A stretch of 64,000 nucleotides of DNA from positions 6,144,001-6,208,000 of the forward strand of contig CAWIAD010000002.1 of NCBI GenBank assembly GCA_963833985.1. Reading direction: 5' to 3'. A program made the position numbers and the translations under genes. The notes under the pieces are model-generated. The model did no database searches, was not told where the DNA came from, and saw nothing but the letters and a program-made list of their open reading frames with translations. Numbering within the stretch: the first letter of the stretch is position 1; each line of letters starts with the position of its first letter. Below, one piece after another: positions 11,020 to 19,140 of the stretch. The stretch is from an uncultured Planctomycetaceae bacterium (GTDB lineage Bacteria; Planctomycetota; Planctomycetia; Isosphaerales; Isosphaeraceae).

Positions 11020-12522
11020 TCAGCGGCGGCGGACGATCATGCCGTAATGGTCAGGTCCATCGTCTTGCCGGGCGGTCGCGGTACGCTGCCAGACCGGCGC
11101 CGATGGCCCCAGGTCGGATAAGCTTCTCACGCCAGCACGAACCTGCTGGGCCGACAGGCAATAGACATCGAACGTTGCGGCATCATCTCCTGCACTGGCT
11201 CCTGCGCTGTCTCCGCTGCCCAGCACCACGCGGTGACGCGGACTGAGGTAATAGCGTGCGGCCTCCACCTCGTCACGGGGAAACCGCGAGTCGCTGGGGT
11301 GAATCGCAATGGTCGCATTTCCCTGCGTTTCCTGGCTCAGCCACTGCCCGAGCGCCCTCCAGTCGGCCTTGACCACAGGGCTGTTGTTGCTTGCCTCGAT
11401 CGCCGCGATCGAGAGGCAGAATGCCCCGAGCGCGAGAGCCCAGCGCAAGGGTCCGGGCAGCATGCACAGACCGTGGGCCAGCAAGAGCAGATAGGCGGGG
11501 GCAATGAAGAGATGATAACGACCTGGCCCGAAGATCGGCTGGCGGAGCCAGGATTCCACGAACATGAGGACGGGAGGCACCACCAGCCAGCACAGCAGGA
11601 TCCCGCTTTCCACGGGCTGGCTCAGTCGCGGACGACGACCCTGCGTGGTGAACAGCCCCGCGGCGATGACCAGGATGCACGCCAGCAACACGAGGCTGTT
11701 GCCGCCGATGTACTCGATCGGTACGGCCAGCAGTACGCGCAGCGAGTACCGCGGGAGCGGATAATCGGTCCCGTGGTCGAGATAGCGCGGCAGCCATGGT
11801 GCGATCGCCAGCAAGACGCCGGCCAGGATGACCAGCCACGAGCGGAACCCGAGCGCGAGTGAGCGGCGGACGAGCAAGTATGCGGCAATGTGCGCCGCGA
11901 CCATGAAGAGGCCAACCGGGTGGCTGTACACAAGCGCCGTCAGCATCAGACCGTAGGCGATCCTCAGCGGGATGGACTCCGTACGCCGGAACTCCAGGAA
12001 CAGCAGCCACGACAGGCAGGCGACGAGCACCAGCCAGGCGTACATGCGCGCTTCCTGTGCGTGGTAGACCAGGGGCGGGCAAACGGCCGCGAGCCAGGCG
12101 GCCCAGCGCCCCGCCTGATCGTTCCAGAGGCGCCGGCCAAGCTGATAGACGGCCAGCACGGTGCCGATTCCGCAGACGGCGCTGAACGATCGTCCGGCCG
12201 TCTCCGAGTCGCCGAAGAGCTTGACCCAGCCCTGAAGAACCAGCGGATGAAGCGGCGCGCGGGTGCCGTCGATCTGGCCAAGCAGGCCGATCAGCGCGCG
12301 GGGACCGGCCGTCCGCGCCAGCCGCATGGTGACCACCTCGTCATACCAGAAGCTGTACTGGCCCAGCCCGCGCACGCGGAGCCAGACGGCGGTGAAGAGA
12401 ATCAGCAGGAGGTGTGCCGCGATGCCAAAGCGGCAGGTGCCTGCGACTGAACTTCCGAGGCCCGGAGCGTCTTCCTGGCGATCGACGGCAGTCCGCCGCG
12501 GTCCTCGCCAGGGCGGGCTCAT
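11020..12522 (-). CDS. GT-C glycosyltransferase (family 39 / ArnT/PMT-like)
   Basis: SFWYDE, PLHP, GRSFSA, QEARMYA, multiple TM helices; start overlaps ArsR stop. Confidence 0.85.
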   Translation of the reverse strand: MSPPWRGPRRTAVDRQEDAPGLGSSVAGTCRFGIAAHLLLILFTAVWLRVRGLGQYSFWYDEVVTMRLARTAGPRALIGLLGQIDGTRAPLHPLVLQGWVKLFGDSETAGRSFSAVCGIGTVLAVYQLGRRLWNDQAGRWAAWLAAVCPPLVYHAQEARMYAWLVLVACLSWLLFLEFRRTESIPLRIAYGLMLTALVYSHPVGLFMVAAHIAAYLLVRRSLALGFRSWLVILAGVLLAIAPWLPRYLDHGTDYPLPRYSLRVLLAVPIEYIGGNSLVLLACILVIAAGLFTTQGRRPRLSQPVESGILLCWLVVPPVLMFVESWLRQPIFGPGRYHLFIAPAYLLLLAHGLCMLPGPLRWALALGAFCLSIAAIEASNNSPVVKADWRALGQWLSQETQGNATIAIHPSDSRFPRDEVEAARYYLSPRHRVVLGSGDSAGASAGDDAATFDVYCLSAQQVRAGVRSLSDLGPSAPVWQRTATARQDDGPDHYGMIVRRR

Positions 12523-12872
12523 CGTGCCGGGCCCAGCTTTTGCAGCAATTGGCTCTGGCGTTCGACCGAACGCTCCACCTCGCCGCGGATCGTCGAGCAG
12601 ACCAGCGTGCAGAGCTGCTCGACCAGGGGGTCGTCGAGACGGTAGTACACCTGCAACCCCTCCTTCCGCCGGCGCACCAAGCCCGAGTCGGCCAGGAGCT
12701 TGAGATGCTTGGAAACGTTGGCCTGCCCGCGTCCCGTTTCCGTGACGACCTGCCCTACGCTCTTCTCGCCCTCCATGAGCGTACGGAGGATCGCCAGCCG
12801 CGTCGGATCGGCCAGCATCTGAAACTTGGTCGCGATCAGGTCCAGCAGGTCGTCGGGGAGGAGTGGAGTCAT
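12519..12872 (-). CDS. ArsR/SmtB family transcriptional regulator with C-terminal CxxxC
   Basis: FQMLADPTRLAIL, QANVSKHLKLL, GLVRRRKEGLQVYYRL, then LCTLVC. Confidence 0.93.
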   Translation of the reverse strand: MTPLLPDDLLDLIATKFQMLADPTRLAILRTLMEGEKSVGQVVTETGRGQANVSKHLKLLADSGLVRRRKEGLQVYYRLDDPLVEQLCTLVCSTIRGEVERSVERQSQLLQKLGPAR

Positions 12873-12876
12873 TGTG

Positions 12877-12905
12877 TTGACTTTATAGCCCTTCGATTAT
12901 ATAAC
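12877..12905 (+). promoter_or_regulatory. sigma70-type promoter for the small ORF at 12975, overlapping a probable divergent leaderless arsR promoter
   Basis: TTGACT(12877-82)-N17-TATAAC(12900-05); on the minus strand TAAAGT lies 7 nt before the arsR ATG; AT-rich island with palindrome TTATATAA. Confidence 0.55.
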
Positions 12906-12974
12906 TAAAGAAGGCAGTACCTTATTGTAACCGCCTGGGACTGAGGTGCAAGGGCCTTGGAACGGAAGAAATCG

Positions 12975-13181
12975 ATGTCCGAAATCTTGCTGATGGTCGG
13001 CTTCGTGGCCGTCTGGATTGTGCTCAATCGCTGGATATTGCCGAGGATGGGAGTGGCCACCTGAATGAGCGGGAGCTGCGCGGTGTCACCGCGCCAGGAG
13101 ACCGACTCGAGGCGTTCGCCCGCCTTTGCCGAGCCGCGGAGCAAGACGGCGAGCGGGGTGGACTCGGAGAAACCGTACTGA
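12975..13181 (+). CDS. Putative small membrane-anchored selenoprotein, 68 aa, UGA at codon 30 (U-x4-C); absent from the ORF track
   Basis: MSEILLMVGFVAVWIVLNRWILPRMGVAT-[TGA 13062-64]-MSGSCAVSPRQ...EKPY-TGA; GGAAG before ATG, upstream promoter, hairpin after UGA; ends 2 nt from the convergent gene's stop. Confidence 0.65.
13076..13097 (+). promoter_or_regulatory. Candidate bacterial SECIS element
   Basis: GCGCGGT-GTC-ACCGCGC stem-loop (13078-13094), extendable by CT/AG pairs with one bulged C; apical loop begins with GU, 20 nt after the UGA. Confidence 0.55.
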
Positions 13182-13183
13182 GC

Positions 13184-13942
13184 TCAGCGGGTTTCTCGCT
13201 GGCGGCTGTCGGGGCTGGCCGCATCTCTGGCCATGAGATGAAAGTCGATCACCAGCGGCAAGTGGTCGGAGGCATCGCGCGCCAGCCGCGAGTGGGCGAT
13301 CCGGACATGGCGAAATCTCCAGCCCCCGCGGGCGAACGCCTTGTCGAGGGCGGTCATCGGAAAGTACGCCGGAAACGACAGGAAGCGTGACCGCGGAGCG
13401 GTTAACTGGCTGAAGCCGCGGCGGGCGAAGAGCCCATCCGCCAGCGTATTGCGCCAGTCGTTGAAATCTCCGACGATCAGCGTGGGCAGGTGAGCGGCCT
13501 GGCGGAAGAGATGGTGTTCCATGAGATGGAGCACCTGCCAGTGCCGTTCCCGCTCGGCCAGGCCAAGGTGCCAGTGGACCAGGTGGAATGGCCCCTCTGG
13601 GCTGTTGACCACGGCAAGCTGAGCGCCGCGGGCTTTCCGCCGCTCGTGCCTGAGCGAGACCTGGTGATGCGACTGGAAGGGCCAGCGCGACAGGACCAGG
13701 TTGCCGTAGCCGCCATCCCTGAGCTTGACGTTGAGCTGATACATGTGAGCCGCGGCGTGAAACGCCTCGACAAGCCGGCGCGGCTGGTCGTCGTGCCGCG
13801 TCCGCGACACGTGCCGGTCCACCTCCTGGAGGCAAATGAGGTCCGGGTTCTGGTCCTCGATGACCTGGATGATCCGCTCCAGACGATAGCGCCGGTCCCG
13901 GCCGCCGATCCCCTTGTGGATGTTGTAGCTCAGCAGTCTCAT
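13184..13942 (-). CDS. Endonuclease/exonuclease/phosphatase family protein (YbhP-like)
   Basis: Start moved to 13942; LLSYNIHKG, LICLQEVD, YGNLVLSR, VGDFNDW, ASDHLPL. Confidence 0.92.
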   Translation of the reverse strand: MRLLSYNIHKGIGGRDRRYRLERIIQVIEDQNPDLICLQEVDRHVSRTRHDDQPRRLVEAFHAAAHMYQLNVKLRDGGYGNLVLSRWPFQSHHQVSLRHERRKARGAQLAVVNSPEGPFHLVHWHLGLAERERHWQVLHLMEHHLFRQAAHLPTLIVGDFNDWRNTLADGLFARRGFSQLTAPRSRFLSFPAYFPMTALDKAFARGGWRFRHVRIAHSRLARDASDHLPLVIDFHLMARDAASPDSRQRETR

Positions 13943-14667
13943 GGTCGCGCGTCGTGCGGCTCCTGCGGCGAGCGTGCGCTCTCTCCCTGGGTCCGCGGGA
14001 CGCTCGCGAGTTTCACGTAATCTTCGAGGTGGTCGCACTTTCCGTTGACCGCCTCGTGCCGGGCCGTGCCCCCCGCATCCCGCTCCACGGGCTGGTCCAG
14101 CCGGGCGTCAGCATGAGTGTGAGTGACGGTGCGGCCGCTCCGGACGGCCCGGATTCCGGACACAACCAGCCAGTGATGGACCGCCCGATAAGCGAACCAG
14201 TAGCCGATCAGGTTCGGGCCGGGCAAGGGCCAGAGCAACGCCAGCGCCACCGGGGCGATGATGGCATTGTAGCTCAGCGCGACGACATGAGCACGCCCGC
14301 GCCGGCGCAGATAATCGCTCCAGAGGCTACGGACCTCTTCAACCGGCCGCGTGGTCGGGTGCTTCAGATCGATCCGCGTGGCCGATCGCAAACGCCGCAG
14401 CATCGGCTCGTCCGCACGGGTCAGTGAATGCATCCAGTCCCAACCTCGCCTCATCCATCCCATTGCTCCGCTTCGAGCATGGTGGACGTCATTCCACCAA
14501 TGCTCCCAGCGCCGGAGCAGTTTATCCCGCAGGGATGTGGGCGCAGCACGCGCGTCATCGGCAGCCTCGTCGGCGACCGCCTCGCACTCGTCTGCGTAAA
14601 AAAAAACGCGCCGGTCGTCCGCCAGAAGCAAGTAGATCGTCACGTGAAAATCCGTTTCTGGTCGCAT
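13939..14667 (-). CDS. Hypothetical membrane protein (resembles Mit_KHE1/DUF2343-like proteins); true start may be GTG 14643
   Basis: Hydrophobic hairpin with LPGPNLIGYWFAYRAVHHW; stop overlaps EEP start. Confidence 0.55.
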   Translation of the reverse strand: MRPETDFHVTIYLLLADDRRVFFYADECEAVADEAADDARAAPTSLRDKLLRRWEHWWNDVHHARSGAMGWMRRGWDWMHSLTRADEPMLRRLRSATRIDLKHPTTRPVEEVRSLWSDYLRRRGRAHVVALSYNAIIAPVALALLWPLPGPNLIGYWFAYRAVHHWLVVSGIRAVRSGRTVTHTHADARLDQPVERDAGGTARHEAVNGKCDHLEDYVKLASVPRTQGESARSPQEPHDARP

Positions 14668-17011: not shown

Positions 17012-19140
17012 CCCGACTTTCGCAGGAAGGAATTAGAAGACAGGCTCGCTAATTCACATAATCCTCCCATCCTGACGTCTCCATGCTCAGACTAGGCAGT
17101 CTGGATAAGGTTGACAACCGAAACCAGGCTCATTTCCCACTTCATCCCAAAATAGTGACTAATTCTAGTGGCTCCCGCCTTGATTTTCTAAGGGCGCCAT
17201 GTCATCTATAGTGACCATGTACATCCGCAAGACGGTCCGACGATACAAAGATAAAACATACGTGAATTTCTTGTTGGTCGAGTCCGTCCTCACCGACAAG
17301 GGACCGCGGCAAAAGGTAATCTGTTCACTCGGTGATCTCTCGCCCGCGCCGCCCCAAGAGTGGCTTGCCTTGGCCCGCAAGCTCCAGGACGCACTCACCG
17401 GTCAATTGTCCCTCCCGGGGATGGTCGATGAGGATCCGGAACTCGAGCGACTCAAGCAGGCGCTTCCCCTGCAAGCCACTCCCCCCGGCGAAGGCGACGT
17501 GACTGCGTCCTCGACCTCCTCGGCGGACGATCTGATTTCGGTGCACGTCGATCGCGTCACCTCCGAATCGCCCCGGCCCGCCGGTCACGTCCATGTCGGT
17601 CGCGAATTCTGGAAGCGATTGGGCCTGGACGACATCTTGAAATCACTGGGCTTCACCCCGTGGCTGATATCATTGACCTGCGCGATGACGCTCAATCGGC
17701 TCATTCATCCCGCGGCCGAATACTCCATGCCCGACTGGATTCGATCCACGGCTTTGGCCGACATCCTGGGCGTCGACTTCTCGCGCCTCCCCGACGATCC
17801 CCTGTACCGCAACCTGGATCGCCTGCACCACCACCGCGCCACCATTGAATCGGCCCTGGCCCAGCGCGAGCAAAGCCTCTTCAACCTGGGAAATACGGTC
17901 CTGCTCTATGACCTGACGAGCACCTATTTCGAGGGGAAAGCGGATCTCATCCCCAAAGCCAAACGCGGCTACTCCCGCGATCACCGGCCCGACTGTAAGC
18001 AACTTGTGGTGGGGCTCGTCATCGGTCGTGAGGGGTTCCCCCGCGCTCACGAAATCTTCGAGGGCAACGCTCAGGATAGGCAAACGCTCAGCACGATGCT
18101 CGACTTGCTCAAGCAGCGCGTGGGGCTTCCTGAAGGCTCCACGATTGTCGTCGACCGCGGGATGGCCTTCGCGGAGAACATCGCGGAGCTCCGTCGACGC
18201 AACTTGCATTACGTCGTAGCCGCTGGACAGAAGGAACGCGATCGCCTCCTCGCCGAATTCGAGACGGCTGAGGGATTCACAGAAGTCATCCGCCAACCTT
18301 CACCCCGCAATCCTGGTCAGAAGAAATCGTCCGTGCGGGTCAAGGCTCACCCATCGAATAATGAGCTTCTGATATTGTGCATAAGCCAAGAGCGGGTGGA
18401 GAAGGACCGCGCTATCCGCACCAAGCAAGAGGGGCGTTACCTGAAGGATGTGGCGCGACTTCAAGGACGAATCGAGAAGGGACGGCTCAAGAAGGAGATC
18501 AAGATCGGCGAGGCGGTTGGCCGGCTCAAGGAACGCTACCCTCGGGTGGCTCGCTATTACTCACTGACCTTCGACGTCAAAACCCGACAACTCAAGAACC
18601 AACCCGATGAAGAGAAGCAGAAGGTTGCAGCGAGCCTTGATGGCAGCTATTTGCTGCGTAGCGACCGTCTGGAGCTTACTGGCGACGAGGGGTGGCGGAT
18701 CTACGGCTCTCTCACTCGAGCCGAGAATGCCTTCCGGTGCATGAAAAGCCCGTTGTGCGAGCGTCCCATCTTCCATCACCTGGAGCACAGGGTGGAATCG
18801 CATATTTTTCTGTGCGTTCTGGCATACCACTTATTGGTTGCCATCGAGACGACATTGCTGCGTCAAGACATACACACGTCGTGGGCAACGGTTCGGGACC
18901 TGCTTGCCAAACACGAGATTACGACAATCGTTCTGCCCACCGACCAGAATGGAATGCTGCGGATACGTCGGAGCGCCACGCCCGAGCCCGACCACAAGGT
19001 TCTGTACGAGGCGCTCGGAGTTCCGATACAGATCATACGTCCAGTAAAAACCTGGGAGCAAAGCCGGCCCAATAGTGACTGAAAAATCGACGGGACCCTG
19101 ATTTTCAAGTGGTTCCCCGGCCCAGGGTGCGGAAGTTAGG
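17012..19140 (+). mobile_element. IS1634-family insertion sequence, 2129 bp
   Basis: Imperfect terminal IRs CCCGACTTTCGCA / TGCGGAAGTTAGG (10/13 matches), CTAG on both sides (17008-11 and 19141-44), single transposase. Confidence 0.88.
17217..19082 (+). CDS. IS1634-family DDE transposase
   Basis: MYIRKT..K.YV..LVES...GPRQ; LYDLTSTYFEG, GYSRDHRPD, VVDRG, Y..L.RAENAFRCMK...RPIFH..RVESHIFLCVLAY. Confidence 0.93.
   Translation: MYIRKTVRRYKDKTYVNFLLVESVLTDKGPRQKVICSLGDLSPAPPQEWLALARKLQDALTGQLSLPGMVDEDPELERLKQALPLQATPPGEGDVTASSTSSADDLISVHVDRVTSESPRPAGHVHVGREFWKRLGLDDILKSLGFTPWLISLTCAMTLNRLIHPAAEYSMPDWIRSTALADILGVDFSRLPDDPLYRNLDRLHHHRATIESALAQREQSLFNLGNTVLLYDLTSTYFEGKADLIPKAKRGYSRDHRPDCKQLVVGLVIGREGFPRAHEIFEGNAQDRQTLSTMLDLLKQRVGLPEGSTIVVDRGMAFAENIAELRRRNLHYVVAAGQKERDRLLAEFETAEGFTEVIRQPSPRNPGQKKSSVRVKAHPSNNELLILCISQERVEKDRAIRTKQEGRYLKDVARLQGRIEKGRLKKEIKIGEAVGRLKERYPRVARYYSLTFDVKTRQLKNQPDEEKQKVAASLDGSYLLRSDRLELTGDEGWRIYGSLTRAENAFRCMKSPLCERPIFHHLEHRVESHIFLCVLAYHLLVAIETTLLRQDIHTSWATVRDLLAKHEITTIVLPTDQNGMLRIRRSATPEPDHKVLYEALGVPIQIIRPVKTWEQSRPNSD

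Follow-up and report, generated by a model that had tools for sequence, protein, structure and literature searches.

A predicted membrane-anchored micro-selenoprotein in planctomycetes, its genomic setting and a possible link to sulfane sulfur

The micro-gene and its surroundings

The analysed window is a 64,000-nucleotide stretch of an uncultured planctomycete genome of the family Isosphaeraceae (G000 in this study). A preliminary description of this DNA had proposed that an open reading frame with an in-frame TGA codon and a single Cys encodes a small membrane-anchored selenoprotein, and the coordinates and the sequence of that frame proved to be as described. Among the reads and contigs compared with it, none spans the UGA. 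The following features were located at the locus.

12519..12872, minus strand: divergent ArsR/SmtB-family regulator with a C-terminal C-x3-C motif (NF033788, 90.8 bits, cut-off 55)
12877..12905, plus strand: conserved sigma70-like promoter, TTGACT-17 nt-TATAAC, adjoining the arsR start (16-locus alignment by eye)
12924..12951, minus strand: putative arsR promoter in face-to-face arrangement, TTGCAC-16 nt-TACAAT (its role suggested by a column block, ATT[GCTA]TA, kept in 16 loci)
12975..13181, plus strand: gene of the predicted 68-aa micro-selenoprotein in its read-through form, with the core W-x5-W-x-L-P-x2-G-x2-T-U-M-S-G-x-C followed by an unconserved tail
12978..13046, plus strand: predicted single transmembrane helix, residues 2-24 (AlphaFold2 model, hydropathy peak of 2.2 and positive-inside rule)
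13062..13064, plus strand: in-frame UGA, predicted Sec30, with Cys codons at the aligned site in homologues
13077..13079, plus strand: Cys35, putative resolving partner (U-x4-C) and only Cys of the frame
13078..13094, plus strand: bacterial SECIS hairpin GCGCGGT-GTC-ACCGCGC, with a 7-bp stem, a GUC loop 20 nt past the UGA and -11.2 kcal/mol
13184..13945, minus strand: convergent endonuclease/exonuclease/phosphatase gene (PF03372; found in 8 of 80 loci)

The AlphaFold model of the micro-protein consists of one helix (residues 2-24) and coil, with a pLDDT of about 90 over residues 1-20 and a pTM of 0.33, and the tail beyond the core is predicted to be disordered. Positive charge is greater at the C-terminal than at the N-terminal flank of the helix in 77 of 81 sequences, from which the positive-inside rule predicts an N-out/C-in topology in which Sec30 would face the cytoplasm. 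The read-through stop lies 2 nt away from the stop of the convergent gene at 13184. This exact filling of the gap had been offered in support of the read-through frame and is no evidence for it, since the tail varies from 17 to 70 aa among loci; in L039 it is even overlapped by the open reading frame of the convergent gene. The convergent phosphatase-fold gene is regarded as local synteny only, outside the proposed system.

Database searches with the micro-protein yielded little. Neither Pfam nor NCBIfam holds a model that matches the window protein or eight homologues, Rfam returned 0 matches at the micro-gene, and a PDB sequence search produced no chain below an E-value of 0.1. A word-index protein search with the window protein gave 1 match, a search of the ESM Atlas gave one 123-member cluster at 0.83, which is taken as a lead only, and no paralogue of the micro-gene was found in G000.

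The family had already been catalogued as a predicted selenoprotein in the accessible parts of two sources (PMC12013277, Dataset S1; PMC5029168, supplement). Six sequences of the family layout are given as 'known' selenoproteins in Dataset S1 of PMC12013277, as far as that source was available; five were compared and all have the core. The accessible supplement file 4 of Peng et al. 2016 (PMC5029168) contains the entry 'Unknown (Geobacter lovleyi)' with 5 proteins from 5 organisms and, as no sequence stands behind this label, we infer that it denotes the catalogued sequences. The layout TM-WxLP-x2-G-x2-T-U-x4-C, with its transmembrane segment and core, was recognised by eye in both the window protein and the catalogued sequences. 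Between W14 and C35, 16 of 22 residues of the window protein are identical to one of the family sequences printed in the available supplement, and the protein of locus L089 matches that same sequence at 28 of 30 core positions (by eye). Full-text searches of the earlier literature retrieved the label only, given as a rare family, and no text that describes the proteins, assigns them a function or analyses their gene context or SECIS; BSepDB, Haft & Tolstoy 2025 and Deng et al. 2026 may list the family under another name. The family name is absent from the family table of deep-Sep and from the available parts of a 2022 review (PMC9312934), a 2026 review table (PMC13188914), the GOS paper (PMC2398784) and the Haft bioRxiv preprint. 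The accessible portions of BSepDB (PMC13326102) and SelCysML (PMC13745706) contain no description of it. What appears to be new here is the breadth of the family, the covariation of its hairpin, its decay after loss of Sec and its gene context.

Upstream of the micro-gene, a promoter of its own had been claimed. An alignment by eye of 16 loci with a divergent ArsR gene revealed that TTGACT is kept in 15/16 and that the -10-like box 17 nt further on ends in T in 15/16, the window being the exception. A promoter/terminator scanner returned 0 sites at the window locus, which is explained by the window -10 reading TATAAC. The ArsR neighbour represents a subfamily that carries CxLVC (a C-terminal CxxxC) in 16/16 loci and no other conserved Cys. 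The BigR and SqrR persulfide sensors have a Cys pair that is split between helices 2 and 5. Unlike these, both Cys residues of the ArsR neighbour reside in the C-terminal motif, and its BigR score of 53 bits falls under the cut-off of 155, so that it is not classed as BigR. Nor does any other specific ArsR model among those listed from NCBIfam reach its cut-off with this protein. An ArsR gene is found within 700 nt of the micro-gene in 17/80 loci versus 0.15% of random windows, and the divergent regulator is likely, judging from this arrangement, to be a repressor of the micro-gene. About 4 kb downstream of the micro-gene, a 627-aa open reading frame (17199-19082, plus strand) was seen, which we take to resemble an IS1634-type transposase.

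Predicted read-through of the in-frame UGA

A hairpin with its loop 20 nt past the UGA had been part of the preliminary description and is present at 13078-13094, where it overlaps the codons for C-A-V-S-P-R. According to the legend of Fig. 2 in the available part of PMC13188914, a consensus bacterial SECIS has its loop 16-37 nt past the UGA, a G in the first two loop positions and a folding energy of -7.5 kcal/mol or lower; the 3-nt loop with G first, the 7-bp stem, the spacing of 20 nt and the energy of the window hairpin all fit. Unlike the model in that legend, the stem of the micro-gene is tied to coding, through the wobble position of Cys35 and an Arg/His codon. By itself, the window hairpin is weak evidence. 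Among 1500 random TGA codons of contig C2 of G000, 9.4% are followed by a hairpin conforming to the broad SECIS model and 2.3% by one at 19-23 nt. Folding energy alone was rejected as evidence, as the z-score of the hairpin ranges from -2.6 to +0.2 with the stretch that is folded.

It is conservation and covariation across homologues that raise the hairpin above chance. With our own implementation of the constraints in PMC13188914 (not bSECISearch), a SECIS hairpin was detected in 53/66 TGA loci versus 1/14 Cys loci and, in a sample of the phylum, in 12/17 TGA loci versus 0/3 Cys loci; the strict form of the test is failed by the other 13/66 and 5/17 TGA loci. In 28 TGA sequences, pairing is retained in 99.5% of 196 stem cells, 12 of which are changed on both sides; 0/500 shuffles scored as high and slid controls reached 14-58%, a comparison that flatters the stem because related sequences were tested against a structure derived from the window sequence. 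The chief compensatory pair links the TGC/TGT wobble of the Cys35 codon with an Arg/His exchange five codons downstream (CG in 17 sequences, UA in 10). Hairpins with loops beginning in GG also follow the UGA codons of the SelD and FdhA-like genes in G000 (the FdhA hairpin by eye).

Coding beyond the TGA was seen at the level of the reading frame and of the DNA. The read-through frame stays open for at least 17 codons in 66/66 TGA loci versus 31/66 and 38/66 for the two other frames. Ungapped DNA identity to eight close loci amounts to 85-94% from the UGA to +33, 71-78% upstream and 30-42% downstream. The expectation that both sequence and hairpin would be conserved past the TGA was thus borne out across the homologues. 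Cys35 is absent from 3/17 TGA forms of the phylum sample, and the second Cys appears to be dispensable in some Sec forms.

The preliminary description had held that a genome lacking selABCD would speak against Sec, and selA, selB, selD and tRNA-Sec were all identified in G000. The protein genes score over their cut-offs (selA 512 bits, selB 371 bits and selD, with a TGA of its own, 346 bits), and the tRNA-Sec gene scores 80.7 bits and is called as tRNA-SeC(tca) by ARAGORN. Within the order, selA is present in 46 of the 52 genomes with a TGA inside the match (one of them, G084, a weak partial match, and the position of the TGA being read directly only in fetched loci) and in 0/6 Cys-only genomes. 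The six TGA genomes without selA comprise three that are 68-83% complete, two with decayed copies of the gene and G052, an exception that is described below. In the phylum sample, for which the codon was read in 20 of 25 non-self matches, selA is present in 22/23 TGA genomes (G170 being without) versus 0/3 Cys genomes. In both sets the genomes are partly kin and the counts are not independent, so that p-values overstate the link. Apart from these exceptions, the TGA form is confined to Sec-using genomes in this comparison. Taken from the sequence evidence, Sec is very probably inserted at the UGA of the micro-gene; by every computational test run this is a real micro-selenoprotein gene, of a family that had been predicted and labelled and was left undescribed.

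The gene selA is frequent in the phylum (219/301 sampled genomes, and 86/121 genomes of the order), an abundance that points to under-explored selenoproteomes in planctomycetes. Isosphaera pallida is credited with 1 selenoprotein in the available part of PMC5029168. The present family enlarges the planctomycete selenoproteome.

Breadth of the family and fates after Sec loss

A search of 121 genomes of the order with the window protein matched 63 at E<=0.01, and a profile search of the same genomes matched 58 at E<=1e-4. Among 30 loci that were fetched, position 30 is TGA in 28, TGC in 1 and TGG in 1. When species genomes were scanned, 255 of 307 candidate stretches were confirmed. The 80 loci that were kept are mostly Planctomycetota by title, with Isosphaeraceae closest; others derive from Syntrophobacteraceae, Desulfuromonadales, Spirochaetes, Acidobacteriota and Myxococcota. 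The codon at position 30 is TGA in 66 and TGC/TGT in 14 of these 80 loci, a ratio that is biased because a Cys codon was demanded by one of the two search patterns and because the set shares members with the order search. For the phylum sample, genomes of 90% completeness or more were taken and scoring was limited to 20 candidates per genome; 26/301 genomes were matched.

A search of representative proteins yielded 1177 clusters at E<=0.001. Of the 150 matches listed, 145 proteins were analysed and five were left out, as the pattern missed them. Nine of these 145 stop exactly at T29, which agrees with the earlier suspicion that annotators would cut the gene at 29 aa. The 136 full-length proteins among those listed have Cys (126), Trp (7) or another residue (3) at position 30, and 133/136 have a Cys five residues further on. 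The Cys-for-Sec homologues that had been anticipated are therefore found both in these 126 proteins and in the 14/80 loci. One listed Cys-form member, P0085 (208 aa), is fused in frame to thioredoxin, a single case for which an assembly artefact is possible. These searches correct the annotation of a family that was credited with 5 organisms in 2016. Roughly every second genome of the order has it, the loci number at least 255 overall, and gene callers cut its members at 29 aa or drop them.

The fate of the gene after loss of Sec could be followed in five genomes of 94-100% completeness (G094, G091, G093, G020 and G052) which carry the gene or its remnants and in which selA, selB and selD were not found; their tRNA-Sec matches reach at most 51 bits, compared with 80.7 bits in G000. 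The gene is Cys-converted or decayed in four of the five. G094 has a TGC copy with an intact, perfect SECIS stem (L023:1523-1560), and this leftover SECIS suggests a recent Sec-to-Cys switch. G091 likewise has a TGC copy, in which the hairpin is not seen, G093 has two decayed copies, one of them with TGG and an early stop, and the copy in G020 has lost its N-terminus, Cys35 and the stem. The fifth genome, G052 (99% complete), is the exception to the tracking of selA: its TGA gene looks intact and has a single mismatch in the stem. A cassette around the gene is 87-93% identical over 5-7 kb in G094, G050, G052 and G093, which belong to three genera. In L057, L069, L079 and L119 this sulfur cassette spans 6-7 kb or more and encodes a sulfite-oxidase-like Mo enzyme, ArsR, the micro-protein, DsrE, rhodanese-YgaP, TauE, an MBL-rhodanese fusion, a second DsrE and a 5'-nucleotidase/SoxB-like protein. 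Its near identity suggests lateral movement of a possibly mobile unit. The loss of Sec thus offers a compact natural experiment, in which TGA with SECIS, TGC with leftover SECIS and pseudogenes occur in near-identical cassettes.

Gene neighbourhood and proposed function

Neighbouring genes were surveyed with 23 query proteins picked from the same 80 loci and the window, with labels such as PDO, SQR and SoxB-like being readings of Pfam architectures (one SQR-like protein that was scanned fell far below the NCBIfam cut-off). The 80 loci are not independent, as one cassette recurs at 87-93% identity. The most frequent neighbours are ArsR (26), HlyD-type (20), rhodanese-YgaP (20, including rhodanese-only matches), AcrB (18) and zf-HC2 (18) proteins, followed by MBL-rhodanese (15), TauE (15), stand-alone YgaP-TM (12), cytochrome bd-I-like (9) and SQR-like (9) proteins. 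Less frequent are ECF (8), thioredoxin (7), CoA-disulfide-reductase-rhodanese (5), DsrE (5-6), ArsD (4), ArsA (4) and Acr3 (3) neighbours, and none of the 23 queries was found in 13/80 loci. At least one sulfur-handling gene (rhodanese/YgaP, persulfide-dioxygenase-like or TauE) lies within 5 kb in 38/80 loci versus 0.95% of 2000 random 10-kb windows of G000. A YgaP-type TM profile matches in 33/80 loci and at a single place in the whole of G000. In the phylum sample the neighbourhood signal is weaker, with a sulfur gene in 6/20 loci and nothing recognised in 11/20.

At the window locus only ArsR was found near the micro-gene, and no sulfur gene. About 185 kb away (G000:C2:5967000-5973000), the same genome carries a module of rhodanese-YgaP, stand-alone rhodanese-like, HlyD-type and AcrB genes. 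The single YgaP-TM match of G000 lies there, beside a rhodanese and an RND pump, and elsewhere genomes have this same module next to the micro-gene.

With a probability of about one half, the cytoplasm-facing Sec30/Cys35 pair may act as a membrane-tethered carrier of sulfane sulfur or as a redox relay, with rhodanese/YgaP, persulfide-dioxygenase-like, TauE and RND proteins as candidate partners and the ArsR protein as repressor. In such a scheme, SelB would read the in-frame SECIS and Sec30 would be placed just past the single transmembrane helix. The selenolate of the U-x4-C site could pick up sulfur from a rhodanese or from SQR persulfide, the loaded Sec30 would be resolved through Cys35 or by thioredoxin or a CoA-disulfide reductase, and the sulfur would be handed on for oxidation, reduction or export, while ArsR would control the micro-gene at the overlapping promoters. 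The sulfur chemistry itself is deduced from the neighbours and has an even chance of being right. More tentatively, the core of about 35 residues can be viewed as a selenium-bearing handle that holds sulfane sulfur at the membrane, an unrecognised and mobile part of rhodanese/PDO/TauE detoxification cassettes in which Sec changes to Cys or the gene decays in Sec-less hosts; if so, few selenoprotein families of bacteria would be smaller or more under-counted. In general terms, it is likely from these gene contexts that the family, widespread in planctomycetes, helps to handle reactive sulfur at the cell membrane. An orphan family thereby gains a first testable function and a regulator.

Two other functions would also involve a real selenoprotein. 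AcrZ is a small accessory subunit of an RND efflux pump, and the micro-protein could by analogy be an accessory or metal(loid)-binding subunit of an RND pump or arsenic module, with U-x4-C binding As, Hg or Cu. The HlyD-type (20/80) and AcrB (18/80) neighbours, frequently immediately downstream, the few ArsD, ArsA and Acr3 genes (4, 4 and 3) and the divergent ArsR-family regulator with its CxxxC motif speak for this function; it is nevertheless unlikely, as sulfur-handling neighbours are commoner (38/80), most loci are without a pump and the related RND pump of G000 itself lies beside rhodanese genes. A slightly lower probability is given to a general redox sensor or switch at the membrane. 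It would belong to a stress regulon of the ECF/anti-sigma or ArsR type and would signal, for instance, to the zf-HC2 anti-sigma or the cytochrome bd-like protein. It would suit the predicted disordered tail and the zf-HC2 (18/80, mostly directly upstream), ECF (8), cytochrome bd-I-like (9) and thioredoxin (7) neighbours, but these are confined to one subset of loci, many of which also have a YgaP-TM gene.

The remaining explanations concern the UGA itself. In a selenium-sensing leader, translation of the following gene would be coupled to Sec read-through, and the peptide itself would be of little importance. Such a leader would account for the unconserved tail and for several loci in which the following gene begins close to the read-through stop or at it, such as L111 with a 4-nt overlap. 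It is improbable because the window has no co-directional gene after the micro-gene and because the transmembrane segment and both Cys residues are kept at the protein level in Cys forms; L111 is itself a Cys form and shows this layout in the absence of any UGA. Least probable of all is an ordinary stop that yields a 29-aa membrane peptide and a coupled frame from the adjacent ATG, or a UGA read as Trp. An ATG right after the TGA in most loci, W at position 30 in 7/136 listed database proteins and the TGA of G052 without Sec machinery would fit such a reading. That Met is, however, retained in Cys forms (107/136 listed), several TGA forms continue with CTG, CTC, CTA, GCG, GGC or GGG, the SECIS is specific to TGA forms and TGA tracks selA, and TGA serves as a regular stop codon in G000, where it also terminates the micro-ORF itself.

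Known systems offer parallels in layout and in gene context. SELENOK and SELENOS are small eukaryotic selenoproteins that are anchored by one membrane segment and carry Sec in a disordered cytosolic portion, near the C-terminus. The micro-protein resembles this layout in its single anchor and disordered, predicted cytosolic Sec part, and differs in that its Sec is placed about 6 residues past the helix end and its SECIS lies inside the coding region. Like the sqr-pdo-rhodanese operons covered by the available part of PMC9163753, the loci include MBL-rhodanese fusions, rhodanese-YgaP, SQR-like flavoproteins and TauE; unlike those operons, they have the micro-gene, for which no comparable protein was found in that portion of the source. 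A predicted complex of the L111 Cys form with the adjacent YgaP-TM protein scored 0.01, which is weighed neither for nor against a partnership. Downstream of the gene, a pair of genes recurs (L048:5623-8321, L049, L066, L067, L075, L092, L093, L103 and L110), which encodes a cytochrome bd subunit I-like/cbb3-type cytochrome c fusion and a 381-aa membrane protein without a Pfam match.
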